A DNA stretch of 64,000 bases from assembly GCA_001766815.1 (NCBI GenBank), contig LYOS01000001.1, forward strand, positions 148,998 through 212,997, read 5' to 3'. This document shows positions 2,139-17,171 of this stretch, one piece after another. The notes beneath the pieces were generated by a model. It had not been told where the DNA came from, did not search any database, and saw only the letters and a program-made list of their open reading frames with translations. This DNA is from Candidatus Syntropharchaeum caldarium (GTDB taxonomy: Archaea > Halobacteriota > Syntropharchaeia > Syntropharchaeales > Syntropharchaeaceae). The first letter of the stretch is position 1, and each line of letters begins with the position of its first letter. Made by a program: the position numbers and the translations under genes.

Positions 2139-5100
2139 ATGGTGAAATGTGTGAGGCGATTGATAGCGGTATTTTTAATCTCGTTATTTATATTCCCGTT
2201 GGTATCTGCAGATCTCAGAAAGGATCTCACAGATAACCTCCCTCTAAGTGTAAGATCTCCTTCTGGTACTGAGACCCTGATCTGCGGTTACCTGTTTGAG
2301 AGGGGATCTACAGGCAGTGTAAGGATCACAAACCTCAACACCAGTTTAAGCTGGGATGCAAGGCTACTTGAGTCAGAGCCAGACTTCTACTACCTCTATC
2401 TCGATGAAATTGAGCTTAAAGCAGGAGATATGCTCAGGCTCAACGCAACCTCAGGTGATGAATCGGTCGTATTAATTCATACCGTAAACCAGAGTGAGAT
2501 CGATGAGCATCTGGTGTGGCTTGATATCATCGAGGATCTTGCGATAACAGAGATCACAATACCAAACAGAATTACAAAAGATATCAACACCACTATCCAC
2601 GCCGTAATTGAGAATATTGGACTGATACCAGTCGTTGTACCCTTCAATATTACATTCAGCGTTGATGGAGAACTCATAACTACTACCTCTTTTACAGAAG
2701 TTCCTTTAAACGCCAGTGAGAACTTTACCGTAGAATTTTATTGGACTCCTCTGGAATCCGGGATACACAACATCACAATCACTGTGGATCCGAATCATGA
2801 AATTATATCAGAGACGAATGAATCGAATAATCGAATGAAGAAAAGCGTGTCTGTTGCTGAACTACCTTCGTTTTATGTGCCACTGGACTTTCCCACGATT
2901 CAAGATGCGGTGGATAATGTAACAATTAACGGAACCACGATTTATGTCGCAAGCGGCACGTATAACGAGAATATAATGATTCAAAAGCAGATCACACTTC
3001 TGGGAGCGGATATGAATGATACAATCATAGACGGAGGTGGGAACGATACATTAAGGCTTTTTGCGAATAATTGTGTCATCAGAGGTTTTTCGATAATTAA
3101 TGGGAGCACAGGTATAAAGATCGAATCCAATGGCAATAAAATCTTTGAAAATTGGATTTATAACAACTCCTGCGGCGTAAATATCACCGGATTAAATAAT
3201 ACCGTTTATCATAATAATCTGAATAATGTTCAGAACGGATTTGATACCGGTAATAGTTCGTGGGACGATGGAAGGGAAGGAAACTACTGGAGCGATTGTA
3301 CCGGCGATGATTTCGATCTCAATGGGATTGTAGACACGCCTTATGAATGCGGGTGGGTAACGGATCGATATCCTTTAGTTTCTCCATATGTACTGCACAG
3401 AGACCCGGCAATCGCGTATCTCACTGTCCCCACATCTATTTATGTGAATGAAACGAATACTATCTTTGTGGGCATTGCCAATTACGGCACTTCAGAAGTG
3501 GCAAGCAATCTCTCACTCAAACTCGGTGGCACTATTCTGAACATGACGATTTCTCTACCATATAAGAGCATAAACGCTGTTTATTTCTGCGTGACTCCGA
3601 ACCAGATGGGGACAATAAACCTAACAGCGGAGATAGAGGCATGCAATGAAGATTCAAATAGAGCAAACAACCGGATGAGCGTGAATGTTACGGTAATTCC
3701 TTCGCCTTTTAAGCGCCTTTACAATTTTGATAACGAAACAACTATGGCGGAATATTATAAATATCAACTTCCTGAAAGCAGAACGAATGCTCTGGATTAC
3801 TTAGCAATGCAGCAGAATTCTGACGGCGGCATCGGTCAGGGTGGCTATTCGACAGATCTGGCTATTATAGCGGTATCATCTGCTGGAGAGAATCCGCAGG
3901 AGTTTGCGAGACTGAATTCGTCGCTTACAGATTATTTAAAAGCGCATCCGCCTCAGCATGACCTGACTTTAATATCTCGCTATGTGCTTGCGATTATCGC
4001 TTCTGGTGAGAATCCGCGTGATTTTGGTGGTAAAAACTATCTTGCGATGATTCAATCATTCTTCGATGGAGAACAGTTTGGAATTGAGAAGAATATCGTG
4101 GATGATGCGTGGGCTGTGCTTGCACTTACCGGAGCAGGATATGGCAATGACACAGAAATTATGCGAACTGAAAGGAATTATATTCTCAGGTGTCAGAATG
4201 AGAGTGATGGCGGATGGCCGTATTTTGAGAATGGAACGAGCTCAATCGATGTAACTGCGATAGCATTAGAAGCTCTGGTTGCTTCTGGTATAGCTGTGGA
4301 TAATAGTTCGATACAGAATGGCACGAAATATTTGGAAAAAAATCTTGTGAAGAATCAATGGGAAGAGGGGATGGGGCAGACAGACCCACTGCCAGAATCC
4401 AATCTGAAAAATTATGCTCATTCAGTCCAGGCAATCGTTGCTGTTGGAGGGAATCCGATAGATGGAAGCTGGGATTATTCGCAGAGTGCAGCTACATACT
4501 ACGGGATTGAAAACCCATACAACCCGCTACTTCTGCTCTTGGGACTCGAAGAGAAGTCGGGCGATTTTGAAGGTGGATTCGCGTTCACATTTAAAGATTC
4601 TTATCCCGAACCTAAATGGACATCAATGGCACTCCCCTCGCTGTTCGCAAAGCCATATCCTTCGATGTGCACGTATAGCCGGGTGCTATCAGACATAAAG
4701 CCCATTCATATAGGGACACGGGCTTGCTACACCAATGTTACAAATATTATCAATGCAACAATCAAGAACAACGGCGGGATATTCAACGTGAGTCTTCTTG
4801 TGGATGGTGCCGAGGTTGACCGCGCGAGAATTGTGGAGACGAATTCAACTGCATTATCGCGGGTGGAATTCAGATGGCTGCCAGAGAAAGAAGGGGAATA
4901 TAACCTCACCGTTGTGGCAGATTCTGAGAATTCAATAGAAGAGAATAATGAGAGCAATAACTGCATCGGCCGCGTGGTCACTGTGACGAAGCCAGACCTG
5001 CACCCCAGGACAGAACTGCCAGCATTCTATGTCAATGTGACAAACAGAATAGAAACAGAAGTTTTAGGATACGGCGAGGGATTCAACGTATCGCTTCTTA

Positions 5101-8039
5101 TAAATGGAAGCGTTGTAGATAAAGCCGAGAATATCAGCTCTTATGGCTTTAATAAAACAACGTTATACTGGAAGCCAAACCAAACGGGTAACTACACTCT
5201 TAGACTCATCGCTGATTCGGAAAACGATGTATTTGAATCCGATGAGAAGAATAACACCATAGAAGAGAATGTCAGTGTAATACTGCCCGACCTATATCCT
5301 CAGAATATAAGCACTATGATACTGTACACCGATACCGAGAACATCATAGATGTCAGCATCAACGGCTCAGCAGAAGGATTTAACGCGACTTTATTTGCAA
5401 ACGGAACGATTGCAGATAAAATCGAGAACATTTCATCTTATAACGTGGCGAATATCAGTTTTTCGTGGAACCCCCTGCTGGCAGGTGTTTACAACCTCAC
5501 AGTGATGGTAGATGCTGATGATGAGATAGAAGAGACGAACGAAACGAACAACAATCTGAGTCGTATTGTAACCGTAGAGAATCGAGAAGCGCCATACATA
5601 AAACTACTCGCTCCGATAGGTGGTGAATGCTGGAGCGGTGTGCAGACGATAAAGTGGAGTGCAACCGACCCGAACGGCGATGAACTAATAATAAACATCA
5701 GCTACAGCCCGGATGCAGGAATAATGTGGCATCCAATTGCAAGCAATCTTGAGAACACAGGCTATTATAATTGGAGCACCGAGTACATGCTGGATGGATA
5801 TGATTATAAGGTAAAAGTAGAAGCATTTGATGGGAATTCTACCTCAGTGGATATCTCAAAAGATGTATTCACAATCTACAACAGGAGATCGTATGAGGGG
5901 GCACCAAGCTTCCATTATAATGCGGGTTTCTCACTCTCGGAAGCGCCGAATACGAATAAAACTGCGTGGATAACCGAAGATATTGGTGCATGCCCTTCCA
6001 CTTCTCTTATTGTTGCCGATGGTAAGGTCTTTGTCTACTGCTATGACAGTGTGAAGGCACTGGACGAATTAAATGGCAGCACAGACCTAAATGGCAGCAC
6101 AAAACCCATCTGGAGCACATCCATAGATAAGGCTGTTTATGGCTCGTGGGCGACTGCGGCATACTACGACGGATCGGTATTCATAGCTTCAGGAAATCAT
6201 GTTTACCGAATTAGTGCTAAAGATGGAAAGATAGAATGGAGGTTCCAATTCCCTGATGGGGGGTGCAGTGTGAATAGTGGTCCGTGTGTTGCATACGGAA
6301 ATGTATATGTGGGTTCATGGAACGGGGGGCACTATTACTGCTTGAATGACTCAACTGGAGAAATAAAATGGCAATTTCCTCCAAAAGGTGAAAAGAAACT
6401 GGATCACGCACAATCAACACCAGCAGCACATAACGGAATGGTCTTCTTCGGTGATTTTACAGGCGGACCGAAATCAAAGGTTTTTGCCGTTGATGGACTT
6501 ACAGGTGAAGAGATATGGAATCAAACAGTTTCGTGGAGTGTCTGCGGCTCCGTTACGATTGCGCACAATAAGGTATACCTCATGACATATAATTTCTATG
6601 GTTCAGGAGAGTTTTATGCACTCAATGAAAATAACGGAAGCATTGTCTGGCAACATACGATTGCAAGGTCCGATTCTACACCGGCGCATGCGTATGGAAA
6701 CATCTATGTCTGTGGTGGATGCCCAGGTTATGAGCGGTGTAGAACATACTGTCTGAATGATGCAGACGGAGGAAACGAGACCTGGAATGTGCCTGATTGG
6801 GGGATATGGACATATTCACCGATGGTTGCAGATAAGAAAGTATTTATTGGTAAAGCAGAGGGACCGGGGATGGACAGTATGCTCCCAGCAGGGATGTCTG
6901 CTCGTAATGCCTTTACCGGAGAAGAGATATGGCGTTCAGATCTCGGCGGTGGTTCACCCGCGATTGTGCATGGGAGGGTATATACCGTGGGGGGTGTTAA
7001 TGCAACGGGCAGAGTTATCTGTTTCGGCTCTACAAACCAACCAGACCTCGAACTGAGTAATCTCACTACGGTTCCAAAGTCAGATATCTATGTCGGTCAA
7101 AATGTTTCAATCAATGTGACACTCAGAAATATTGGCTCTGGTAACGCTTCTGCATTTAACGTTTCTTTACGAGTTAATGGTGAGATAGAAGCGGAAAAAA
7201 GAATTGATGATGGACTTAATGTAAACGTTAGCATGCCTGTGAATTTCTCGTGGACTCCAGTAGAAGCTGGGGAGTATCTTATCATCGTTGAAGCGGATTC
7301 GGATCACGAAATTACCGAGCAGGTTTCAATGCCAGACAATAATAAGGTTAGTAGACCATTAACGGTAAAAGAGTGGCTGGACTTGGCAGTGGAGGATATT
7401 GATTATTATCCAACGGAGGTTCACGTTGGGGATATTGTGAATATAACACCCTCTATTACGGCGGTAAACCTCGAAGGGGAAAGTGTTGGGGTTGAGTTTA
7501 AAGTTGATGATGAAAGTAAAGAGACAAAGAGAGGCGTAGTTAACGGAGAGCAGATAACTGTAAACTTCACATGGAATGCTTCGAGTCCTGGCGGGTATAA
7601 CCTGACGATAGTCGCCGATCCGGGTGGTGGGATAGATGAAGTTAACGAGACGAATAACGAGACGACAATAGTGGTGGAAGTGATGCCAACGCCAACACCA
7701 ACATCCACTCCAACTCCCGGCTTACCCCACGGTTATGGCGGTGGTGGAGGTGGTGGCTCCGGGATATTTGACTGGGGCGAGTTCTTCGGATCGGGTACAG
7801 GCAGTGAGGGCAATGAAACAGGTGAATTTACGATCCCGATAAATGAGACAGAATCTGTGATTGAAGAAGATTCATCGCGTGTGAATGGCTATCCAATGGG
7901 TGAGGAGACCGGAGGAAGTGCGGGCGGTGGAGGAAAGATCTCTTATATCTGGATCCTCATCGTAACCCTGACGCTTGCCCTTGTGATCTATGGTTACTGG
8001 CGAGAGTCGAGGTTTATCGGTAGGAGGAGGAGAAGATGA
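2139..8039 (+). CDS. Giant secreted, membrane-anchored surface protein, paralog 2 (1966 aa): signal peptide, multiple CARDB domains, parallel beta-helix, alpha/alpha-toroid (prenyltransferase-like) region, PQQ-like beta-propeller, C-terminal TP-rich and Gly-rich linker, TM helix, poly-Arg tail
   Basis: Single 5.9 kb ORF. N-terminal MVKCVRRLIAVFLISLFIFPLVSA signal-like segment; beta-helix motifs (TIYVASGTYNENIMIQKQITLLG, NNCVIRGFSIINGS); toroid-like repeats (QQNSDGGIGQGG, CQNESDGGWPYFENG); many NxS/T sequons; C-terminus TPTPTSTPTPG..GGGGGGGSG..ISYIWILIVTLTLALVIYGYWRESRFIGRRRRR. Confidence 0.8.
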   Translation: MVKCVRRLIAVFLISLFIFPLVSADLRKDLTDNLPLSVRSPSGTETLICGYLFERGSTGSVRITNLNTSLSWDARLLESEPDFYYLYLDEIELKAGDMLRLNATSGDESVVLIHTVNQSEIDEHLVWLDIIEDLAITEITIPNRITKDINTTIHAVIENIGLIPVVVPFNITFSVDGELITTTSFTEVPLNASENFTVEFYWTPLESGIHNITITVDPNHEIISETNESNNRMKKSVSVAELPSFYVPLDFPTIQDAVDNVTINGTTIYVASGTYNENIMIQKQITLLGADMNDTIIDGGGNDTLRLFANNCVIRGFSIINGSTGIKIESNGNKIFENWIYNNSCGVNITGLNNTVYHNNLNNVQNGFDTGNSSWDDGREGNYWSDCTGDDFDLNGIVDTPYECGWVTDRYPLVSPYVLHRDPAIAYLTVPTSIYVNETNTIFVGIANYGTSEVASNLSLKLGGTILNMTISLPYKSINAVYFCVTPNQMGTINLTAEIEACNEDSNRANNRMSVNVTVIPSPFKRLYNFDNETTMAEYYKYQLPESRTNALDYLAMQQNSDGGIGQGGYSTDLAIIAVSSAGENPQEFARLNSSLTDYLKAHPPQHDLTLISRYVLAIIASGENPRDFGGKNYLAMIQSFFDGEQFGIEKNIVDDAWAVLALTGAGYGNDTEIMRTERNYILRCQNESDGGWPYFENGTSSIDVTAIALEALVASGIAVDNSSIQNGTKYLEKNLVKNQWEEGMGQTDPLPESNLKNYAHSVQAIVAVGGNPIDGSWDYSQSAATYYGIENPYNPLLLLLGLEEKSGDFEGGFAFTFKDSYPEPKWTSMALPSLFAKPYPSMCTYSRVLSDIKPIHIGTRACYTNVTNIINATIKNNGGIFNVSLLVDGAEVDRARIVETNSTALSRVEFRWLPEKEGEYNLTVVADSENSIEENNESNNCIGRVVTVTKPDLHPRTELPAFYVNVTNRIETEVLGYGEGFNVSLLINGSVVDKAENISSYGFNKTTLYWKPNQTGNYTLRLIADSENDVFESDEKNNTIEENVSVILPDLYPQNISTMILYTDTENIIDVSINGSAEGFNATLFANGTIADKIENISSYNVANISFSWNPLLAGVYNLTVMVDADDEIEETNETNNNLSRIVTVENREAPYIKLLAPIGGECWSGVQTIKWSATDPNGDELIINISYSPDAGIMWHPIASNLENTGYYNWSTEYMLDGYDYKVKVEAFDGNSTSVDISKDVFTIYNRRSYEGAPSFHYNAGFSLSEAPNTNKTAWITEDIGACPSTSLIVADGKVFVYCYDSVKALDELNGSTDLNGSTKPIWSTSIDKAVYGSWATAAYYDGSVFIASGNHVYRISAKDGKIEWRFQFPDGGCSVNSGPCVAYGNVYVGSWNGGHYYCLNDSTGEIKWQFPPKGEKKLDHAQSTPAAHNGMVFFGDFTGGPKSKVFAVDGLTGEEIWNQTVSWSVCGSVTIAHNKVYLMTYNFYGSGEFYALNENNGSIVWQHTIARSDSTPAHAYGNIYVCGGCPGYERCRTYCLNDADGGNETWNVPDWGIWTYSPMVADKKVFIGKAEGPGMDSMLPAGMSARNAFTGEEIWRSDLGGGSPAIVHGRVYTVGGVNATGRVICFGSTNQPDLELSNLTTVPKSDIYVGQNVSINVTLRNIGSGNASAFNVSLRVNGEIEAEKRIDDGLNVNVSMPVNFSWTPVEAGEYLIIVEADSDHEITEQVSMPDNNKVSRPLTVKEWLDLAVEDIDYYPTEVHVGDIVNITPSITAVNLEGESVGVEFKVDDESKETKRGVVNGEQITVNFTWNASSPGGYNLTIVADPGGGIDEVNETNNETTIVVEVMPTPTPTSTPTPGLPHGYGGGGGGGSGIFDWGEFFGSGTGSEGNETGEFTIPINETESVIEEDSSRVNGYPMGEETGGSAGGGGKISYIWILIVTLTLALVIYGYWRESRFIGRRRRR
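6282..7304. repeat. Copy B of the exact ~1.0 kb direct repeat (partner at 1-1023), inside giant protein paralog 2
   Basis: See copy A; encodes the same PQQ-propeller/CARDB block in both paralogs. Confidence 0.85.
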
Positions 8040-8074
8040 TGAGTATCGACAGGGAAGAGAACACCTGTAGCTCA

Positions 8075-8266
8075 TCAGTAAGCCTCGTCGTGATGAACGA
8101 GCCTGTCGAAGATGAGAACCCTGAGATTCTTGAAACGATGGATCATCTCCTCGTCACAGGCAGAAATCTGGTTTATCTTCATTTGAACTCTTCTAAAAAA
8201 TGCCATGTCTTTCTTTTTGATCTTTATCATCGTTCGTTTGAGTTCGTCGGAGATGCAGATCTTCAT
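8075..8266 (-). CDS. Small hypothetical protein, possible ribbon-helix-helix-like DNA-binding protein
   Basis: 63 aa ORF; N-terminal KICISDELKRTM resembles the strand-helix start of RHH proteins and parallels the adjacent upstream ORF; the + strand ORF across this region is Ser-rich low complexity. Confidence 0.3.
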   Translation of the reverse strand: MKICISDELKRTMIKIKKKDMAFFRRVQMKINQISACDEEMIHRFKNLRVLIFDRLVHHDEAY

Positions 8267-8571
8267 AATTCATTGCACCATTTATCGAACTCTTCCAGGC
8301 TCATGGGCTTTCTCTTACCGGATTCAAGTTCTTTCAATACCTCCTCTGTAGATCTAACGACTTCCTTAGCCAGAGAATCTTTGACCTCCTTCTCATCATC
8401 CGGTATTTCAGATATTTCAGCAATTTTCCTTCCCATCTCAAGTTCTTCTATATCATGTAATCTTTCAGAGATAGCTTTTAATGCTACTGCTGGCCAATCA
8501 ACCCAATCTATTCTGGACATTCGCTCCTTCAGCTTGTCAGGTATCACAACCTTTATCTTTGCCATTCCCAT
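8263..8571 (-). CDS. Small hypothetical protein, ribbon-helix-helix-like (putative transcriptional regulator)
   Basis: 102 aa charged helical protein; N-terminal KIKVVIPDKLKERMSRI resembles the RHH beta-strand/helix motif; 4-nt overlap with the next small ORF; divergent from the ExbB-like gene. Confidence 0.4.
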   Translation of the reverse strand: MGMAKIKVVIPDKLKERMSRIDWVDWPAVALKAISERLHDIEELEMGRKIAEISEIPDDEKEVKDSLAKEVVRSTEEVLKELESGKRKPMSLEEFDKWCNEL

Positions 8572-8594
8572 CGCCTATGGCTATATCGGTCATT

Positions 8595-8608
8595 CGTTTA
8601 TAAATAGC
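8595..8608. promoter_or_regulatory. TATA-like element in the divergent intergenic region between the RHH-like gene and the ExbB-like gene
   Basis: cgtttataaatagc; an AAGGAGG Shine-Dalgarno-like motif follows at 8648-8654, a few nt before the ATG at 8659. Confidence 0.3.
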
Positions 8609-8658
8609 TTCTCACAGATGGAGAACTCAACGTTTACTGTTAAACAAAGGAGGAAAAT

Positions 8659-9255
8659 ATGATAGATATATTTGCAACGCTCCAGTCATCGATATACTAC
8701 ATCTCAACATACCTTCTGTATCCAGTGATCATTGCACTGCTTATCTGTGTTGGCTTCATCCTCGTTGACACAGGGTCTTTTCTCTACGAGATATACAGAA
8801 GAAAGAGGTTACACTTTGAGTTTGAGGATGAAGTTATCTCAGGCAGGTTTGTTGCGCTATTCATGAAAGAGCTTGAGCACATGGATCATGAAGATAGATA
8901 CTTTGATCTCAAGCTCCAGAAGCTCCTGAATGATATGGAGTATCTCATATCAAAGCGGCTTGAGCTGACGAAGCTCATATCAAGGATTGGTCCCATGTTC
9001 GGTCTTATGGGAACTTTAATCCCGATGGGACCTGCTTTGATAGGGCTTACTCACGGTGACATCGAGACCCTTGCAGATAACCTCATCATCGCATTCGGGA
9101 CAACAGTCGTGGGGCTTCTGGTCGGTGCGGTATCTTACTCGATCGCGATGGTCAGAACGCGCTGGTATGATCAGGAGATGGATGATATGGAGTTTGTATG
9201 TGAGATTGTGACGGGAGGTAGTCAGGATGAAATACATGAAGAAGAGAAGAGGTAA
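8659..9255 (+). CDS. MotA/TolQ/ExbB family proton-channel protein
   Basis: Signature region IGPMFGLMGTLIPMGPALIGLTHGDIETLADNLIIAFGTTVVGLLVGAVSYSIAMVRTRW matches the TolQ/ExbB conserved core; N-terminal TM helix. Confidence 0.7.
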   Translation: MIDIFATLQSSIYYISTYLLYPVIIALLICVGFILVDTGSFLYEIYRRKRLHFEFEDEVISGRFVALFMKELEHMDHEDRYFDLKLQKLLNDMEYLISKRLELTKLISRIGPMFGLMGTLIPMGPALIGLTHGDIETLADNLIIAFGTTVVGLLVGAVSYSIAMVRTRWYDQEMDDMEFVCEIVTGGSQDEIHEEEKR

Positions 9256-9571
9256 GAAGAAGCGATCCTTTGAGGAGGATCCGATGAGTGGTGTTGCAAA
9301 TCTATTCGATGTTGCGATGGTCTTTGCGGTTGCGCTTCTGATAGCGCTTGTATCTTCCTACCATATTCAGGAGCTTCTTGATCCGACCAGGGATATCACA
9401 ATCGTCAAGAACCCTGGACAGCCTGATATGCAGGTCATCGTGAAGGAGGGGAAGGAGATAAAGACGCTGAATGTGACAGAGGAGATGAGTGAAGTTGAGA
9501 TTGCAGGAACTGTTGGAACGATCTACAGGACACCGGATGGTGGAATGGTATATGTGCCTGAGGGTGGATGA
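9227..9571 (+). CDS. ExbD/TolR-like single-pass membrane protein (DUF2149-like partner of archaeal MotA/ExbB homologs)
   Basis: Basic N-terminus then TM helix ANLFDVAMVFAVALLIALV with an embedded Asp, as in ExbD/TolR/MotB; overlaps the ExbB-like gene (start may be 9236). Confidence 0.5.
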   Translation: MKYMKKRRGKKKRSFEEDPMSGVANLFDVAMVFAVALLIALVSSYHIQELLDPTRDITIVKNPGQPDMQVIVKEGKEIKTLNVTEEMSEVEIAGTVGTIYRTPDGGMVYVPEGG

Positions 9572-13685: not shown

Positions 13686-14969
13686 TTATTGTTTCTCGAC
13701 AAGATCGATAACCATCCCTGCAGCGATCGTCTGCCCCATATCTCGTATGGCAAACCTTCCAAGCTGTGGAATTTCCTTTGCCCTCTCGATCACAAGCGGC
13801 CTTGTTGGCCTTATCTTGACGATCGCAGCATCACCAGTCTTCAAAAATTGTGGGTTCTCCTCTGCGACCGCTCCTGTCTTTGGATCAAGCTTCTTCTGAA
13901 GTTCTATGAAGGTGCATGCGACCTGTGCGGTGTGACAGTGGAATACGGGCGTATATCCAACTGTTATTGCGCTCGGGTGTTGCAGGACAACGATCTGTGC
14001 TGTGAACTCTGCGGCTACCGATGGTGGGTTATCGACGTGCCCACAGACGTCACCTCTTCTGAGATCTCCTTTACCGATGCCTCGCACATTCCATCCGATA
14101 TTGTCACCTGGAATTGCTTCAGGGACCTCCTCGTGGTGCATCTCGATGGATTTAACCTCACCAGACTTCATCGTTGGGCTGAAGATAACCTTATCGCCTT
14201 TCTTCATTACACCAGTCTCAACCCTGCCAACGGGGACGGTTCCAACGCCTGAAATCGTGTAGACATCCTGTACAGGTATTCTGAGTGGGAGGTCTATCGG
14301 TTTCTCAGGCTCTTTGAAGTTGTCGAGTGCTTCCAGGACAGTTGGTCCTTTGTACCACTTCAGGTTCTCGCTTGGCTCTGTTACATTGTCTCCCTTGAGT
14401 GCAGATACAGGCAGGAATGTAACCATATCCCCCTTGTATCCAACGATCTTCAGGAGATCTTCGATGTCCTTCTTGACCTCGTTGTAGCGCTCCTCGCTGT
14501 AGTCAACCATGTCCATCTTGTTCAGCGCAACGATGAGCTGGTTGATACCGAGTGTCCTGGAGAGGAAAACATGCTCCTTTGTCTGCGCCATCACACCGTC
14601 CTTTGCGTCAACGACAAGAATCGCGGCATCTGCCTGGGATGCGCCTGTGATCATGTTCTTGACAAAGTCACGATGCCCTGGACAATCTACAACCGTGAAG
14701 TAATACTTGTCGGTATCGAATCGCTGATGAGCAATATCGATCGTGATACCACGCTCTCGTTCTTCCTTCAGTGAGTCCATTACCCATGCAAACTCAAATG
14801 TCGCTTTTCCCTTCGCTTCTGCCTCTTTTCGGTACTGCTCGATCAAATGTGGATCAATCGTCTTTGTCTCAAAGAGCAATCTTCCCACAAGTGTCGACTT
14901 ACCGTGATCAATATGTCCGATCACAGCCAGATTCATGTGTGGTTTTTCTGCCATATCAAATTCCTCCAA
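13686..14969 (-). CDS. tuf: Translation elongation factor 1-alpha (aEF-1A)
   Basis: [47 protein letters not shown]; GGAGG Shine-Dalgarno-like motif upstream. Confidence 0.95.
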
Positions 14970-15032
14970 ATATCGTGATTGTATTCATCGGATACTCTCG
15001 TATTGATCTCACCCATTTATTAATCTAACCCC

Positions 15033-15746
15033 TTACTGTCCCAACTTCAATCGCCTGTGTGCACTTTTGAGCCATTCTGTAGCCTCTTCCATCGCATCAA
15101 CCGCGTGTTCAAGGTCTGTTTTTAAATCAGACAGTCCAAGTGCATCAGCTTCGATCACAGCTTTTTCATAGCTCTCTATATGTCCCTCGCTGTGTTCAAT
15201 CCAGTGTTCAAGTTTCTTTTTTAAGCGTTCTGCATCCATACAACGCCTCCTCAGAAGTTTTACCATCTTTTCGATGTTAATCCAGTGCCCCCCCTCCCAG
15301 AATACATGGCCACAACCTGTACACTGCCAGAACTCCAGGTCACCGAGGCTTGAAGCAGGTACATATTCATACCCTTCTTCTTCCTTTAGTTTTTTGACAT
15401 CATCCTTATTCAATCTTTTGATCGACTCGTTGCATAACGTGCAGCGGAGAACTCGGGTACATGGCTCAATACCAACCCCCAGCATCACCTCTGTGAGCTG
15501 CTCGGCTGTATTCACCGAGTGTATTCGCAGCGCATCTATTCCACGCTGCCTGCACCTCTCAATCAACTCACGATCACGGCTCAATACTATTCGATCTTCC
15601 TTTTTTGCCATCTCAAGAAGTTCCCCATCATCAGCCTCATCACTTGCATAGATCGTATCATACCCGAAGAGTCTGAGCCATGATTTCATGCGACCGAGCA
15701 TACAGTCAACAAGGAACCTCATTCTTTTAATCTCTGCATCACTCAT
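15033..15746 (-). CDS. Mut7-C RNase domain protein (PIN-like) with zinc ribbon and a C-terminal helical extension
   Basis: RFLVDCMLGRMKSWLRLFGYDT N-terminus; CTLCNES...CTGCGH zinc ribbon; extra ~60 aa charged tail. Confidence 0.6.
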   Translation of the reverse strand: MSDAEIKRMRFLVDCMLGRMKSWLRLFGYDTIYASDEADDGELLEMAKKEDRIVLSRDRELIERCRQRGIDALRIHSVNTAEQLTEVMLGVGIEPCTRVLRCTLCNESIKRLNKDDVKKLKEEEGYEYVPASSLGDLEFWQCTGCGHVFWEGGHWINIEKMVKLLRRRCMDAERLKKKLEHWIEHSEGHIESYEKAVIEADALGLSDLKTDLEHAVDAMEEATEWLKSAHRRLKLGQ

Positions 15747-15756
15747 ATTAGATTTA

Positions 15757-17088
15757 ATGGTAGTTCATGTATCACCCGACTCACTTGATTGGATCACTGG
15801 TGTGCGGGTTTATCTCACAGATGGGCAGGGTATAGGTGGAATAATAAAAGCAGAGCCCGAGGATTTTATTGTCGAAGAGCTATCGGAGTCAGATACAGGA
15901 GAGGAGGGTAACTATCTCATCCTTGATCTCGAGAAGCGTGACTGGGAGATGCACAACCTTGTGAGGGTAATCTCTCGGATACTTGGGATCAGCAGAAGAC
16001 GGATCAACTGGGCAGGAACGAAGGACAAGCGAGCGGTCACGAAACAGCGAATCAGTATCTGGAAGATCGATGCAAGCGAGATCGAACGCATCAGGCTAAA
16101 TGGTGTTAAACTCAATGTGGTCGGCAGATCACAGAAAAAAATTGCAATCGGGGATTTATATGCCAATCAATTTGAGATAATCGTGAGAGAGGTTAATTCA
16201 ACAGGCAAAGAGGTTGAAAATAGCCTTATACAGATACAGAGTGAGATAAAAGCGCACGGGGGTGTCATAAACTACTTTGGTAATCAACGTTTCGGTGTAC
16301 AGCGTCCGATAAACCACAGAATAGGGGAACTTCTCATAAAAGGTGAGTTTGAGGACGCGGCATATCTACTTCTCACAGCCACCTTTGGACGTGAGGACGA
16401 GGAGGTCGAAGAGGTGAGGCGGTTCATTTATACCACGGGCGACTTCAAACGGGCGGTTGAGCTTATGCCAAAGGGACTGCATCTCGAACGGACGATACTC
16501 CATGCACTCATCAATAAACCTGATGACTATCTCGGTGCTTTCCTCACACTCCCAAAACAACTCTACAAGATTTTCATCCATGCTTACCAGTCATACATCT
16601 TCAATCGGATTGTTTCTGCAAGGATGGAGGAAGGACTTGGGTTGAATGAGGCAGAAGAGGGAGATATAGTCTGCTTCAGAAATAAGCATGGTTTTGCTGA
16701 TGTCAGGCACTGGCAGGTGGTGAGATCCCATGAGGTTGCGGGAATCAACGACCTTATAGCACGAGGACGTGCATTTGTAACTGCCCCACTCATTGGCTTT
16801 GAGACCGAGATTGCCGGCGGCAGAGAGGGGGAGATAGAACACAAAATCCTTGAATCATGTAAAATTGAGCCCGAAGACTTCAGAATGGATGAAGTTGAAG
16901 CGCTTGCATCAGGGGGCATGAGACGGGAGATAAAACTTCCGGTGGATCCATCATTTGAGGTTCTTGGGGATCGGATGGTTAAGTTTGCATTCGTCCTGCC
17001 AAAAGGGGGGTATGCAACGATAGTGCTTCGAGAGTTTATGAAGACGTGTGATACGCCGGGAAAGGGATTTGAACCCTTGAGGGGATAA
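15757..17088 (+). CDS. truD: tRNA pseudouridine(13) synthase TruD
   Basis: EDFIVEE and GTKDKRAVTKQ motifs; start placed at the first ATG after the upstream gene (the track ORF extends further 5'). Confidence 0.8.
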   Translation: MVVHVSPDSLDWITGVRVYLTDGQGIGGIIKAEPEDFIVEELSESDTGEEGNYLILDLEKRDWEMHNLVRVISRILGISRRRINWAGTKDKRAVTKQRISIWKIDASEIERIRLNGVKLNVVGRSQKKIAIGDLYANQFEIIVREVNSTGKEVENSLIQIQSEIKAHGGVINYFGNQRFGVQRPINHRIGELLIKGEFEDAAYLLLTATFGREDEEVEEVRRFIYTTGDFKRAVELMPKGLHLERTILHALINKPDDYLGAFLTLPKQLYKIFIHAYQSYIFNRIVSARMEEGLGLNEAEEGDIVCFRNKHGFADVRHWQVVRSHEVAGINDLIARGRAFVTAPLIGFETEIAGGREGEIEHKILESCKIEPEDFRMDEVEALASGGMRREIKLPVDPSFEVLGDRMVKFAFVLPKGGYATIVLREFMKTCDTPGKGFEPLRG

Positions 17089-17171
17089 TCCCCACAGGCT
17101 AACTGGATTTTAATTCCTATCAGAACAAAAGTACTCTCCAGGCCTGCGCCTTACCGCTCGACCATCCCGGC
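17054..17171 (-). tRNA. tRNA-Ser (anticodon GGA) with a ~34-35 nt intron in the anticodon loop
   Basis: Reverse complement gives 7-bp acceptor stem GCCGGGA/TCCCGGC, discriminator G, anticodon stem CAGGC/GCCTG, loop CTGGAGA, long variable arm GGGG-ATTA-CCCC, T-arm AAGGG-TTCAAAT-CCCTT; intron 3' end pairs with the anticodon region (bulge-helix-bulge-like). Folded by eye only. Confidence 0.55.

Follow-up and report, generated by a model that had tools for sequence, protein, structure and literature searches.

A single open reading frame (ORF) at positions 2139–8039 of the + strand encodes a giant surface protein of 1966 amino acids. In the reading that we favour on balance, it is a variable partner, exposed at the cell surface, of an ExbB/ExbD-type motor driven by protons, and may work in a manner resembling the Ton and Tol systems. 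The stretch of DNA analysed, hereafter called the window, spans 64,000 nucleotides from a butane-oxidising archaeon, and the giant gene opens a module of three genes that continues with those for an ExbB-family protein and a DUF2149 protein. The evidence is purely genomic and consists of the anatomy of the protein, its excess of N-glycosylation sequons, the gene linkage, a conserved tail and outer domains that are swapped between loci. From these we infer that protein and motor are physically coupled, in which direction force acts and what the cargo may be.

The ORF runs from an ATG to a stop codon, and its product is 100% identical, over the full length, to the NCBI protein P0001, titled [quoted passage not shown]. 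The ORF is genuine, and the original observation of it is confirmed. A literature search found no paper on the "APHP domain" or on the locus tags SCAL_000178-183.

Domain organization and glycosylation sites of the giant protein

All features within the giant gene lie on the + strand. Both ends of the protein bear out the preliminary description, which had proposed a signal peptide and a C-terminal anchor. The Sec-type signal peptide (aa 1–24; positions 2139–2210), recognized from sequence and hydropathy as MVKCVRRLIAVFLISLFIFPLVSA|DL, has a basic n-region and an h-region of 15 residues, with likely cleavage after VSA. Hydropathy analysis revealed only two strongly hydrophobic 19-residue windows, one at the N-terminus and the other at the C-terminus. 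The latter belongs to a transmembrane helix at about aa 1934–1954, followed by RESRFIGRRRRR; motif, alignment and hydropathy place the helix and the basic cytoplasmic tail at positions 7938–8036, and the tail reads G1952-Y-W-R-E1956-S-R, then RRRRR. A stalk rich in Pro/Thr and Gly precedes the helix (aa 1843–1933; positions 7665–7937; tail alignment A4) and holds a family-invariant sequon, N1902-E-T, and a G-Y-P-x-G motif (N11, G26 and P28 are invariant in A4). No PGF-CTERM or other CTERM model indicative of an archaeosortase signal matched the last 124 aa at E≤1; the same search does detect PGF-CTERM in proteins of loci L024 and L026. At the other end, the signal peptide is followed by a family-specific, beta-sandwich-like domain (aa 25–132; positions 2211–2534), for which a Pfam search gave no match. 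This domain, identified with a family HMM (Nterm), is kept in members whose other outer domains differ (P0204, P0206, P0212, P0221, P0223, P0224 and P0230).

Tandem CARDB domains make up much of the outer part. Pfam CARDB (PF07705) matched with E=3e-75 (249 bits against a cut-off of 22.7) in six stretches, and a family-trained HMM resolved seven copies: CARDB 1 (aa 132–233; positions 2532–2837), CARDB 2 (aa 422–513; 3402–3677), CARDB 3–5 (aa 851–1140, comprising 851–942, 951–1041 and 1049–1140; 4689–5558) and, with Pfam in support, CARDB 6–7 (aa 1634–1842, comprising 1634–1737 and 1748–1842; 7038–7664). The tandem arrangement thus stands as first described; the count of at least eight CARDB-like repeats is reached only if a Y_Y_Y-like Ig domain (aa 1160–1262; positions 5616–5924; PF07495, 3.2e-7) and the N-terminal beta-sandwich are included.

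Three further domains named in the preliminary description were recovered between the CARDB copies. A short right-handed parallel beta-helix of the NosD/pectin-lyase type occupies aa 243–422 (positions 2865–3404), with profile matches to NosD TIGR04247 (3.7e-15) and Pectinesterase (1.5e-3), both under the curated cut-offs; homologues of the giant protein carry PF05048/PF13229. An (alpha/alpha)6 toroid of the prenyltransferase/squalene-cyclase repeat type spans aa 520–857 (positions 3696–4709) and contains a conserved GENPRDFGG motif. It has the (alpha/alpha)6 fold with QW repeats of class II terpene cyclases, but it contains no copy of their catalytic DxDD motif and reached only 19.6 bits against the squalene-cyclase model TIGR01787 (cut-off 322.7). 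The beta-propeller (aa 1262–1625; positions 5922–7013) is of the BamB/PQQ_2 type: non-catalytic PQQ_2 was the only model passed (2e-23; 83.7 bits against 27.6), and scores for a PQQ dehydrogenase, as modelled by PF01011 and TIGR03075 for the full 8-bladed quinoprotein propeller, stayed under threshold (PF01011, 15.1 bits against 26.7). Neither C[GA]EQ nor CxxCH occurs in the whole protein. Since both the thioester motif and A2M domains are absent, the protein is not an alpha-2-macroglobulin, in agreement with the initial reading.

These domains could be taken to indicate an extracellular enzyme, in which beta-helix, toroid and propeller act together as a catalytic unit, glycan-active or otherwise, whose task would be to remodel the matrix or S-layer glycans. 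Pectin-lyase-type beta-helices are often carbohydrate-active, and the weak Pectinesterase match would fit such a role. We nevertheless regard it as very improbable: no catalytic family was matched at its curated threshold, DxDD is absent from aa 520–857, identity to the enzymes compared was only 6–13%, the toroid groups by sequence with prenyltransferase/squalene-cyclase repeat proteins, and some members of the family that have no toroid and propeller still keep the tail and the motor.

The giant protein contains 80 NxS/T sequons, or 4.07 per 100 aa, against an expectation of 25.8 +/- 4.5 (2000 shuffles, maximum 41). Elsewhere in the window, nearly every ORF of 150 aa or longer stays at 0–0.9 per 100 aa. 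Density is highest in the CARDB domains (4.3–8.8 per 100 aa, with six of the seven at 5.9 or more), above all in CARDB 3–5 (6.5–8.8), and falls to about 2 per 100 aa in the toroid and propeller. A conserved CARDB motif, E-x-N-E-[ST]-N-N, accounts for part of the excess. The sequons are hence very dense, as had been noted; that they occur "every few residues" is an overstatement, since the median spacing is 16 residues and the mean 23. Together, these sequence features describe a modular, secreted, C-terminally anchored surface protein that is probably heavily N-glycosylated.

An S-layer identity was also considered. The Methanosarcinales S-layer family (PF07752/DUF1608) did not match the giant protein at E≤0.01, in a search that detects PF07752 at 2.4e-195 in a Methanolobus protein (L076:6518-9118). 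A domain search had been named as the means to overturn the view of an atypical S-layer protein; it gave no reassignment to this known family, in line with that view.

Linkage of the conserved tail to ExbB and DUF2149 genes

The second gene of the module (positions 8659–9255, + strand) encodes a 198-aa proton-channel protein of the MotA/TolQ/ExbB family (PF01618, 4e-12; 46.4 bits against 22.9). It is 50–72% identical across lineages and aligns weakly, over its full length, with Serratia ExbB, keeping the helix motifs G-x-x-G-T and T-x-x-G-L. The third gene (positions 9227–9571, + strand) encodes a 114-aa DUF2149 protein (PF09919, 2.6e-30) with one transmembrane helix that bears an invariant Asp (D28, within NLFDVAM) and a small, beta-rich outer domain; a single-pass build with an Asp inside the membrane is likewise seen in ExbD, TolR and MotB. 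We propose that DUF2149 is an analogue of ExbD/TolR because of the register of this Asp: hhalign places D28 opposite ExbD D25 (E=0.09) and TolR D23 (E=0.02), neither alignment being significant. DUF2149 gave no match to PF02472, and its AF2 model was of low confidence (pLDDT 62, pTM 0.30). Across lineages ExbB and DUF2149 are 50–84% identical, compared to 30–51% for the giant protein. The ExbB+DUF2149 pair (COG4744) occurs widely among methanogens. In the literature we found its archaeal form mentioned only as "membrane protein; linked to TolQ" (PMC9425974), and no paper on ExbB in ANME was found. A Zorya-type defence system (ZorAB) was considered and rejected, as PADLOC returned no match for any of the three module proteins or for the pair of small ORFs described below.

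In the window, the giant gene and exbB are 619 nt apart (positions 8040–8658; ORF calls and locus comparison), a spacer seen in this lineage only. It holds two small ORFs on the - strand (8075–8266 and 8263–8571), equivalents of which are called by gene callers in the related contig L086. On the + strand a 208-aa ORF (8036–8662), probably a shadow ORF, was weighed as an HmuT-like third membrane component and discarded: it is Ser-rich, matches no family and is absent at all other loci, and the two minus-strand ORFs with their called equivalents share its DNA. A TTTATAAATA box lies at 8597–8606, with GGAGG 5' of the exbB ATG.

The gene order is conserved elsewhere, and the ExbB-family gene is kept at every homologous locus. 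All four homologues whose 3' flank is present on the contig (P0003, P0005, P0006 and P0204) are followed by MotA_ExbB and then DUF2149. Starting instead from DUF2149, we surveyed the best 80 of 503 genome loci, those most similar to the query, and among these, 22 modules at about 20 distinct loci had the C-terminal profile of the family in the gene directly 5' of exbB. They belong to Syntrophoarchaeum, GoM-Arc1 (Ethanoperedens, Argoarchaeum), ANME-2c and ANME-1. A 4-nt stop/start overlap joins the giant gene to exbB in 15 of the 22, as borne out by independent gene calls. In a neighbour-joining tree of ExbB+DUF2149, all giant-linked motors stood apart from 28 DUF2162/CobN-linked motors, with some motors linked to other surface proteins siding with the former; CobN was found in no giant-linked locus. 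That one C-terminal anchor is common to all proteins encoded 5' of exbB proved to be only partly true, the exception being Methanosarcinaceae proteins of ~224 aa, which are polytopic DUF2162 proteins of the CobN-linked type.

The tail itself is highly specific. G61 and E65 are invariant in the tail alignment; a strict form of the G-Φ-x-(R/K)-E-x-R motif is present in 13 of the 22 tails, and by eye a looser form, G-[FYIM]-x-[RKGN]-[ED]-x-[RK], fits about 21. Among 998 other ORFs the strict motif matched twice, both times in further copies of the family, and a search of 1.84 billion representative proteins with the tail profile returned only 36 clusters, nearly all with the match at the extreme C-terminus. 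As judged from these sequences, the family is defined by its two ends, the N-terminal beta-sandwich and the stalk, helix and tail, and not by its outer domains. It is a small family; among the best 80 of 503 loci it was found in anaerobic methane- and alkane-oxidising archaea, a taxonomic restriction that is unproven because the loci analysed are the most query-like.

Swapping of outer domains and the upstream gene

Between loci the outer domains vary while the ends and the motor link persist. In place of the domains described above there may be beta-helix arrays (P0204), CARDB/beta-helix arrays (P0223, P0224 and P0230) or DUF3344 (P0209, locus L007). P0004 is 88–98% identical to the giant protein at both ends and 29–51% identical in the middle, and P0002 displays the opposite pattern. 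Exchange of outer domains between alleles while both ends stay conserved is the mark of a surface protein that is exposed and diversifies rapidly. DUF4430 domains suspected by eye in homologues P0005-P0007 were not matched by Pfam at E≤1.

The upstream gene, whose 3' part lies at positions 1–2130 of the + strand (Pfam matches) and which is cut by the window edge, ends with a stop codon 8 nt 5' of the giant gene ATG. It encodes a BamB-type propeller (PQQ_2, 6.1e-17), one CARDB (6.4e-19), two cohesins (Cohesin, 5.1e-25 in two stretches) and a type I dockerin (Dockerin_1, 6.3e-14). A direct repeat of 1023 nt connects the two genes: copy A (positions 1–1023, + strand) is 100% identical, with zero mismatches, to copy B inside the giant gene (6282–7304, + strand), and beyond it identity drops to about 25–46%. 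The repeat takes in most of CARDB6 as well as a portion of the propeller; its length applies within the window, which begins inside copy A.

Such surroundings lend some weight to the idea of a passive surface glycoprotein, either an adhesin or the anchor or scaffold of a cohesin/dockerin matrix that holds the archaeon to its sulfate-reducing partner, with ExbB/DUF2149 unrelated or only co-regulated. Cohesin/dockerin genes adjoin the giant gene here and in L002, L010, L015, L086 and L088, and the documented expansion of dockerins and cohesins in ANME has been put forward as a means of structuring the space outside the cell (PMC9012536). A make-up of CARDB, beta-helix and propeller modules is typical for an adhesin, and replacement of outer domains between alleles is characteristic of surface-exposed proteins that are subject to diversifying selection. 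The giant protein, however, has no cohesin or dockerin of its own, and a passive role leaves unexplained both the invariant linkage to ExbB/DUF2149 in at least four lineages, with unrelated outer domains and usually overlapping codons, and the conserved juxtamembrane Glu motif on the cytoplasmic side. We therefore judge a purely passive role rather unlikely. The preliminary suggestion of an adhesin or extracellular scaffold remains plausible as regards the scaffold, given the cohesin/dockerin modules in the upstream gene and in the neighbours of homologues, but it misses the gene context, which is the most telling feature. The tight ExbB-like/DUF2149 linkage, the family-specific tail and the swapped outer domains argue for an energised machine rather than a passive adhesin.

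Proposed mechanism and relation to known systems

Under the motor-partner reading, the giant protein would be exported by Sec, be open to N-glycosylation and be held in the cytoplasmic membrane by its C-terminal helix. ExbB and DUF2149 would form a proton-driven motor of the Ton/Tol kind, onto which this helix and the tail would dock, and proton flow would perform mechanical work on the long, glycan-shielded outer part, made up of the stalk, CARDB spacers and the toroid and propeller as working heads. Such work may free a tightly bound cargo for a binding protein near the membrane, or rearrange contacts within a surface layer organised by cohesins and dockerins. Several observations speak against this reading. 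Co-inheritance of tail and exbB could reflect mere adjacency, with recombination breakpoints inside the giant gene; the anchor is C-terminal, and there is neither a TonB_C domain nor an outer-membrane receptor; and in the window, 619 nt with antisense ORFs split the giant gene from exbB.

Hints about the cargo come from neighbouring genes. A Peripla_BP_2 binding-protein gene lies directly 3' of DUF2149 in L001, L010 and L026, and DUF4430, known as the C-terminal domain of transcobalamin (PMC4350170), is found in neighbouring genes at L001, L010 and L004. Sequence relatives of the toroid include toroid+DUF4430 fusions, one of which adjoins genes for an ECF S-component, a class II ribonucleotide reductase and a cobalamin adenosyltransferase. 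In methanogens the sister motors occur in linkage with CobN-type chelatases, and in Bacteroidota with hmu, an operon for heme uptake (PMC11681262, PMC12583661). No Peripla_BP_2, DUF4430 or CobN gene is present in the window, and PF14478 (DUF4430) matched neither the giant protein nor candidate segments of its homologues. The toroid has a generic fold, and toroids resembling terpene cyclases and glycoside hydrolases outscored the cobalamin carriers. A corrinoid, some other tetrapyrrole or a metal chelate is our best guess for the predicted cargo. The full proposal, a Ton-like surface machine of anaerobic methane- and alkane-oxidising archaea, driven by the proton motive force, whose motor grips the helix and the Glu-containing tail and pulls or turns the protein to hand such a cargo, bound with extreme tightness, to a binding protein close to the membrane, is tentative, and we consider it doubtful in this detailed form.

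The same motor evidence could serve an envelope-integrity tether acting in the manner of Tol-Pal, in which the motor holds or repositions the S-layer or outer sheath, for example at division, and no cargo is involved. In the Methanolobus locus L076, proteins with a PF07752 S-layer domain plus CARDB are encoded 5' of ExbB/DUF2149, and many loci, the window included, have no binding-protein gene nearby. Yet outer domains that vary between alleles are a poor fit for a structural tether, and the recurrent Peripla_BP_2 and DUF4430 neighbours suggest ligand handling, which makes a tether improbable.

Proton motors of the Ton/Tol/Mot type are regarded as a bacterial solution for powering processes beyond the cytoplasmic membrane. 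The module resembles Ton (TonB-ExbB-ExbD) and Tol (TolA-TolQ-TolR) in its three genes, for a MotA/ExbB-family channel, a small single-pass partner with an Asp embedded in the membrane and a long protein that has a single anchoring helix and extends away from the membrane; in the tight packing of these genes into one operon; and in the Pro-rich spacer beside the anchor, homologues P0007 and P0008 having TonB-like (Glu-Pro)n runs. In contrast to Ton and Tol, the archaeal system has neither an outer membrane nor a TonB-dependent receptor, the anchor helix is C-terminal where those of TonB and TolA are N-terminal, the proposed ExbD analogue, DUF2149, has an outer domain that is smaller and of another kind, and the output protein is 1500–4600 aa long, probably glycosylated and variable between alleles. 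No match to the TonB_C, TolA_C or TolA families and no SHLS motif were found in the giant protein. Because of the C-terminal anchor, the lack of TonB_C/TolA and the lack of an outer membrane, we say that the giant protein "works like" rather than "is a member of" Ton/Tol.

Other systems share parts of this arrangement. In the hmu operon (hmuYRSTUV) of Bacteroidota, HmuU is a MotA/ExbB-family protein and HmuV is DUF2149 (PMC11681262), and methanogens have ExbB/DUF2149 next to DUF2162 and a CobN-type chelatase; this hmu/CobN context is the only one in which DUF2149 is discussed in the literature searched. Unlike these, the giant-linked motor forms a separate clade, the partner of the motor is a giant surface protein, and CobN, DUF2162, a hemophore and a TonB-dependent receptor are all absent from the locus. 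Transcobalamin, intrinsic factor, haptocorrin and bacterial toroid+DUF4430 proteins are similar in that relatives of the toroid are fused to DUF4430 and that genes for DUF4430 proteins neighbour those of giant-protein homologues. The giant protein itself, however, has no DUF4430 and a toroid for which terpene-cyclase-like toroids score higher. With the haloarchaeal S-layer glycoprotein and Methanosarcina DUF1608 proteins it has in common a Sec signal peptide, a high sequon density and a Thr/Pro-rich stalk by a C-terminal helix, but it differs from archaeal S-layer glycoproteins in the absence of PF07752 and of a PGF-CTERM/archaeosortase signal, in its other domain content and in the motor link. 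The cellulosome-like cohesin/dockerin assemblies of ANME are called to mind by the cohesin and dockerin genes that flank the giant gene and by the identical propeller+CARDB block in the upstream neighbour and the giant protein; the differences are that the giant protein has no cohesin or dockerin and that no carbohydrate-degrading enzymes are present.

As uncultured syntrophs, the hosts live by oxidising methane, ethane and butane, and their surface biology is central to the working of the consortia, through attachment, nutrient sharing and cofactor supply. Replacement of outer domains with the ends kept is relevant to recognition of viruses and partners. With the giant protein, one clade of motors gains a defined partner with a dedicated transmembrane tail and hence a concrete model of what archaeal ExbB-like motors may do. 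If the full proposal is true, it would represent energised nutrient capture across an S-layer envelope that has no outer membrane, by a machine that has not been described before.

Architecture and sequon content of the giant protein

The giant gene (2139-8039, plus strand) is a single ATG-to-stop ORF of 1966 codons lying among archaeal genes (EF-1alpha, DNA polymerase D small subunit, CofC and TruD), and a deposited protein encoded on a 492-kb contig is identical to its product from end to end. It encodes a secreted, C-terminally anchored, modular and sequon-rich protein, already deposited with generic annotation and composed of known domain types. Domain searches recovered each block listed in the preliminary description and confirmed a giant mosaic protein, though two of the numbers given there, for CARDB domains and sequon spacing, were overstated. 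The N-terminus carries a signal peptide (MVKCVRRLIAVFLISLFIFPLVSA/DL), beyond which the sole other strongly hydrophobic segment by hydropathy is the C-terminus, consisting of a transmembrane helix followed by RESRFIGRRRRR. The CARDB profile matched with E=3e-75, and a family-trained HMM resolved seven CARDB domains rather than "at least eight"; to exceed eight, the tally must include both the N-terminal beta-sandwich and a Y_Y_Y-like Ig domain. A beta-helix spans aa 243-422 (NosD-type, 3.7e-15; Pectinesterase, 1.5e-3; both under curated thresholds), and the propeller is of the PQQ_2/BamB type (2e-23). The reported lack of a CGEQ thioester motif in the toroid was borne out, as no such motif occurs anywhere in the giant protein; the whole protein is likewise devoid of the heme-binding CxxCH motif, and no DxDD motif was found in the toroid.

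The protein contains 80 NxS/T sequons against an expectation of 25.8±4.5 (2000 shuffles, maximum 41), and sequon density is 0-0.9 per 100 residues in nearly every other window ORF of 150 aa or longer. The protein is therefore truly enriched, about 3-fold relative to composition and about 10-fold relative to cytoplasmic proteins; however, with a median spacing of 16 residues, the sequons do not occur "every few residues". The excess sits mainly in the CARDB spacers (4.3-8.8 per 100 aa, and no less than 5.9 in six of the seven), the toroid and propeller having about 2 per 100. Homologues of the giant protein are similarly biased (2.7-4.0 per 100).

Genes and DNA flanking the giant gene

The upstream gene, truncated by the window edge, encodes a propeller, one CARDB, two cohesins and a dockerin, and its stop codon lies 8 nt before the giant gene start. 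Positions 1-1023 are 100% identical to positions 6282-7304 within the giant gene, forming a perfect direct repeat common to the two genes. It takes in some of the propeller and the greater part of CARDB6, and beyond it identity collapses abruptly. Since the window begins inside the repeat, 1023 nt is the portion of it within the window. Either the adjacent paralogues have undergone gene conversion very recently or the repeat is an assembly artefact.

Downstream of the giant gene are a MotA/TolQ/ExbB-family gene, exbB (8659-9255; PF01618, 4e-12), and, overlapping it, a DUF2149 gene (9227-9571; PF09919, 2.6e-30). In other lineages the giant gene and exbB overlap or abut, whereas here they are separated by 619 nt (8040-8658), which looks like a lineage-specific insertion. 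A Ser-rich plus-strand ORF of 208 codons (8036-8662) had no family match; two small minus-strand ORFs run across the same DNA (8075-8266, 63 aa; 8263-8571, 102 aa), neither with a Pfam or PADLOC match; and in L086 (ENA ERZ2433807 NODE_19452), the same locus in a close relative, independent gene calls put two minus-strand genes at the equivalent site. The plus-strand ORF was therefore treated as a shadow ORF. The spacer cassette with its minus-strand ORFs is also present in L086, at 97% identity. As we infer from sequence, exbB could have its own expression signals in a TTTATAAATA box (8597-8606) and a GGAGG preceding its ATG.

Elsewhere in the window, a 118-nt Rfam tRNA match (17054-17171, minus strand; 44.9 bits) that was not reported by ARAGORN is probably an intron-containing archaeal tRNA gene. 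A Zorya-like defence role found no support with PADLOC.

Linkage of the family and its tail to ExbB and DUF2149

Full-length relatives of the giant protein share its domain order at 30-51% identity, with one close relative at 91%, and come from Syntropharchaeales, "Methanoperedenaceae GB50/GB37" (GoM-Arc1), Ca. Methanogaster (ANME-2c) and unclassified MAGs. In all relatives with a 3' flank on the contig (P0003, P0005, P0006 and P0204), the gene is followed by MotA_ExbB and then DUF2149. A DUF2149-based scan using one genome per species yielded 503 loci, and among the best 80, which were analysed, the gene directly 5' of exbB bears the family C-terminal profile in 22 modules (about 20 distinct loci), encodes a DUF2162 membrane protein in 28, usually with a CobN-type chelatase near, and in a few encodes a different protein that has a C-terminal helix and CARDB, beta-helix or S-layer domains. 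A neighbour-joining tree of concatenated ExbB and DUF2149 separated all giant-linked motors (ExbB-DUF2149 pairs) from the DUF2162/CobN-linked ones, from which some motors linked to other surface proteins also group apart; CobN is absent from every giant-linked locus analysed. The surface-protein stop codon and the exbB start overlap by 4 nt in 15 of the 22 cases, an overlap also found in independent gene calls. Across lineages ExbB and DUF2149 are 50-84% identical, far better conserved than the giant protein. The linkage of the giant-gene family to the ExbB-family gene and DUF2149 is strict and tight; the main caveat is that co-inheritance of tail and exbB could partly reflect mere physical adjacency.

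The last ~75 residues, reaching from within the stalk through the transmembrane helix to the basic motif, are alignable throughout the family. Invariant in them are a sequon Asn (N1902-E-T in the giant protein), a G-x-P motif and a Gly run, as well as a Gly where the helix reaches the cytoplasm and, at the fourth residue after it, a Glu. A strict form of the G-Φ-x-R/K-E-x-R tail motif is present in 13 of the 22 tails encoded immediately 5' of exbB, which include beta-helix-rich proteins missed by the tail HMM, and a looser form, G-[FYIM]-x-[RKGN]-[ED]-x-[RK], in about 21 by inspection. Only two of the 998 other ORFs of the same loci carry the strict motif, both being extra family copies. When the tail profile was searched against 1.84 billion representative proteins, only 36 clusters matched (E<=1e-3), nearly always at the extreme C-terminus and in proteins of up to 4597 aa. 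The tail is a dedicated, rare module.

This motor-coupled family context is what the present work adds to the earlier interpretation of an adhesin or scaffold. In view of the cohesin/dockerin neighbours, a passive role of this kind is possible and may be part of the truth, but neither the motor linkage nor the conserved cytoplasmic motif is accounted for by it.

Several further loci deserve mention. Locus L004 (Ca. Methanogaster, ANME-2c) has exosortase/archaeosortase-family genes (1296-2465 and 14071-15243; XrtH/ArtB-like, 1.7e-31) flanking ExbB-DUF2149 pairs that adjoin the giant gene, so in some lineages the tail might be processed by a dedicated archaeosortase; the window holds no such gene. 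P0005 (GoM-Arc1 "Methanoperedenaceae GB50", L002) and P0010 (Syntropharchaeales MAG) are nearly identical over their N-terminal ~130 aa despite belonging to different orders, and the GB50 DUF2149 is 84% identical to that of the window, those of other GoM-Arc1 genomes being less close; the locus may have been transferred among thermophilic alkane oxidisers living together, or the binning may be wrong. In L029, L032, L021 and L071 (uncultured Methanosarcinales), a single contig carries two ExbB-DUF2149 modules ~7 kb apart; a 1750-aa CARDB/beta-helix protein whose tail is related precedes one of them, and the other is of the second motor clade. Elsewhere in its genome, Ca. S. caldarius encodes a second DUF2149 protein (P0170, SCAL_001014), 56% identical to that of the window, and therefore probably has at least two ExbB/DUF2149 motors. 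In Methanolobus profundi (L076), the product of the gene at 6518-9118 combines a PF07752 S-layer domain (2.4e-195) with CARDB and a C-terminal helix; ~200 nt downstream of this gene is an ExbB-DUF2149 pair of the otherwise CobN/DUF2162-linked motor clade.

Swappable outer domains and a putative proton-driven motor

The commonest cassette among tail-bearing proteins is CARDB, toroid, three to four CARDB, Ig domain, propeller and one to two CARDB. Others carry beta-helix arrays (P0204), CARDB arrays with beta-helices (P0223, P0224 and P0230) or CARDB with DUF3344 (P0209, S. butanivorans). The two ends, N-terminal beta-sandwich and tail, persist across nearly all these proteins. P0204 lacks toroid and propeller alike, and ExbB and DUF2149 still follow it with a 4-nt overlap. 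That the giant protein is an enzyme is contradicted by such members, and no catalytic family scored above threshold. Window and L086 DNA are ~97% identical in the giant-gene 5' 360 nt, 3' 340 nt and downstream spacer, with no nucleotide similarity in the central 5-6 kb of the gene: an allelic replacement has exchanged the outer domains and left the ends conserved. Accordingly, P0004 shares 88-98% identity with the giant protein at either end and 29-51% in its central part; in P0002 the pattern is reversed. The family is defined by its ends and its middle is swappable. Because recombination is visible in L086, P0004 and P0002, the term "mosaic" holds evolutionarily as well as architecturally.

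Judging from sequence, the module appears to be a Ton/Tol-like proton-motor system in archaea with a new class of output protein. The window ExbB-like protein keeps the G-x-x-G-T and T-x-x-G-L helix motifs, although its full-length alignment with Serratia ExbB is weak (E=0.12). The single helix of DUF2149, the proposed ExbD/TolR analogue, has an invariant Asp (NLFDVAM); hhalign placed D28 opposite D25 of ExbD (E=0.09) and D23 of TolR (E=0.02), a likeness not statistically established, and the AF2 model of DUF2149 is of poor quality. ExbB and DUF2149 would form a Ton/Tol-type proton-driven motor, onto which the helix and Glu-containing tail of the giant protein would dock, and proton flow would perform mechanical work on the outer part via the Pro/Thr/Gly stalk and glycosylated CARDB spacers. 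The likeness to TonB/TolA is functional and no homology is claimed: the giant protein is anchored at the opposite end and lacks the TonB_C domain of TonB. An outer membrane is, to our knowledge, lacking in Archaea.

That the captured cargo is a corrinoid, tetrapyrrole or metal chelate is suggested by several hints, weak and independent of one another, and we consider it rather unlikely. A gene for Peripla_BP_2, a binding protein of the BtuF/FhuD/TroA class, directly follows DUF2149 in three giant-linked loci of different lineages. DUF4430, the domain at the transcobalamin C-terminus (PMC4350170), occurs in genes adjoining giant homologues at three loci, fused once to cohesin and dockerin and once to a propeller. 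The toroid's nearest sequence relatives outside the family are stand-alone proteins of ~360 aa, one annotated as LPXTG-anchored and two fused to DUF4430; one of these fusions adjoins an ECF S-component, a class II ribonucleotide reductase and a PduO-type cobalamin adenosyltransferase. CobN-type chelatases accompany motors of the sister clade, whose link in Bacteroidota is with the hmu operon for heme uptake: HmuU is an ExbB-family and HmuV a DUF2149 protein (PMC11681262, PMC12583661). ANME commonly have metal-transporter substrate-binding proteins that bear dockerins (PMC9012536). Against this cargo count the absence of Peripla_BP_2, DUF4430 and CobN genes from the window and of a DUF4430 domain from the giant protein (Pfam). 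A Tol-Pal-like tether would also agree with the motor evidence, but it fits the allelic outer-domain variability and the binding-protein neighbours less well.

In the literature searched, of incomplete coverage, we found no description of the three-gene module or the tail; an ANME comparative-genomics paper discusses cohesin/dockerin proteins and does not mention ExbB. The archaeal form of the ExbB/DUF2149 pair is mentioned there only as "membrane protein; linked to TolQ" (PMC9425974), and every further paper naming DUF2149 concerns bacteria, including the hmu operon. Drawn entirely from comparative genomics, the association of the giant-protein family with the ExbB/DUF2149 motor is conserved, specific and testable, and it is found in ecologically important uncultured archaea.
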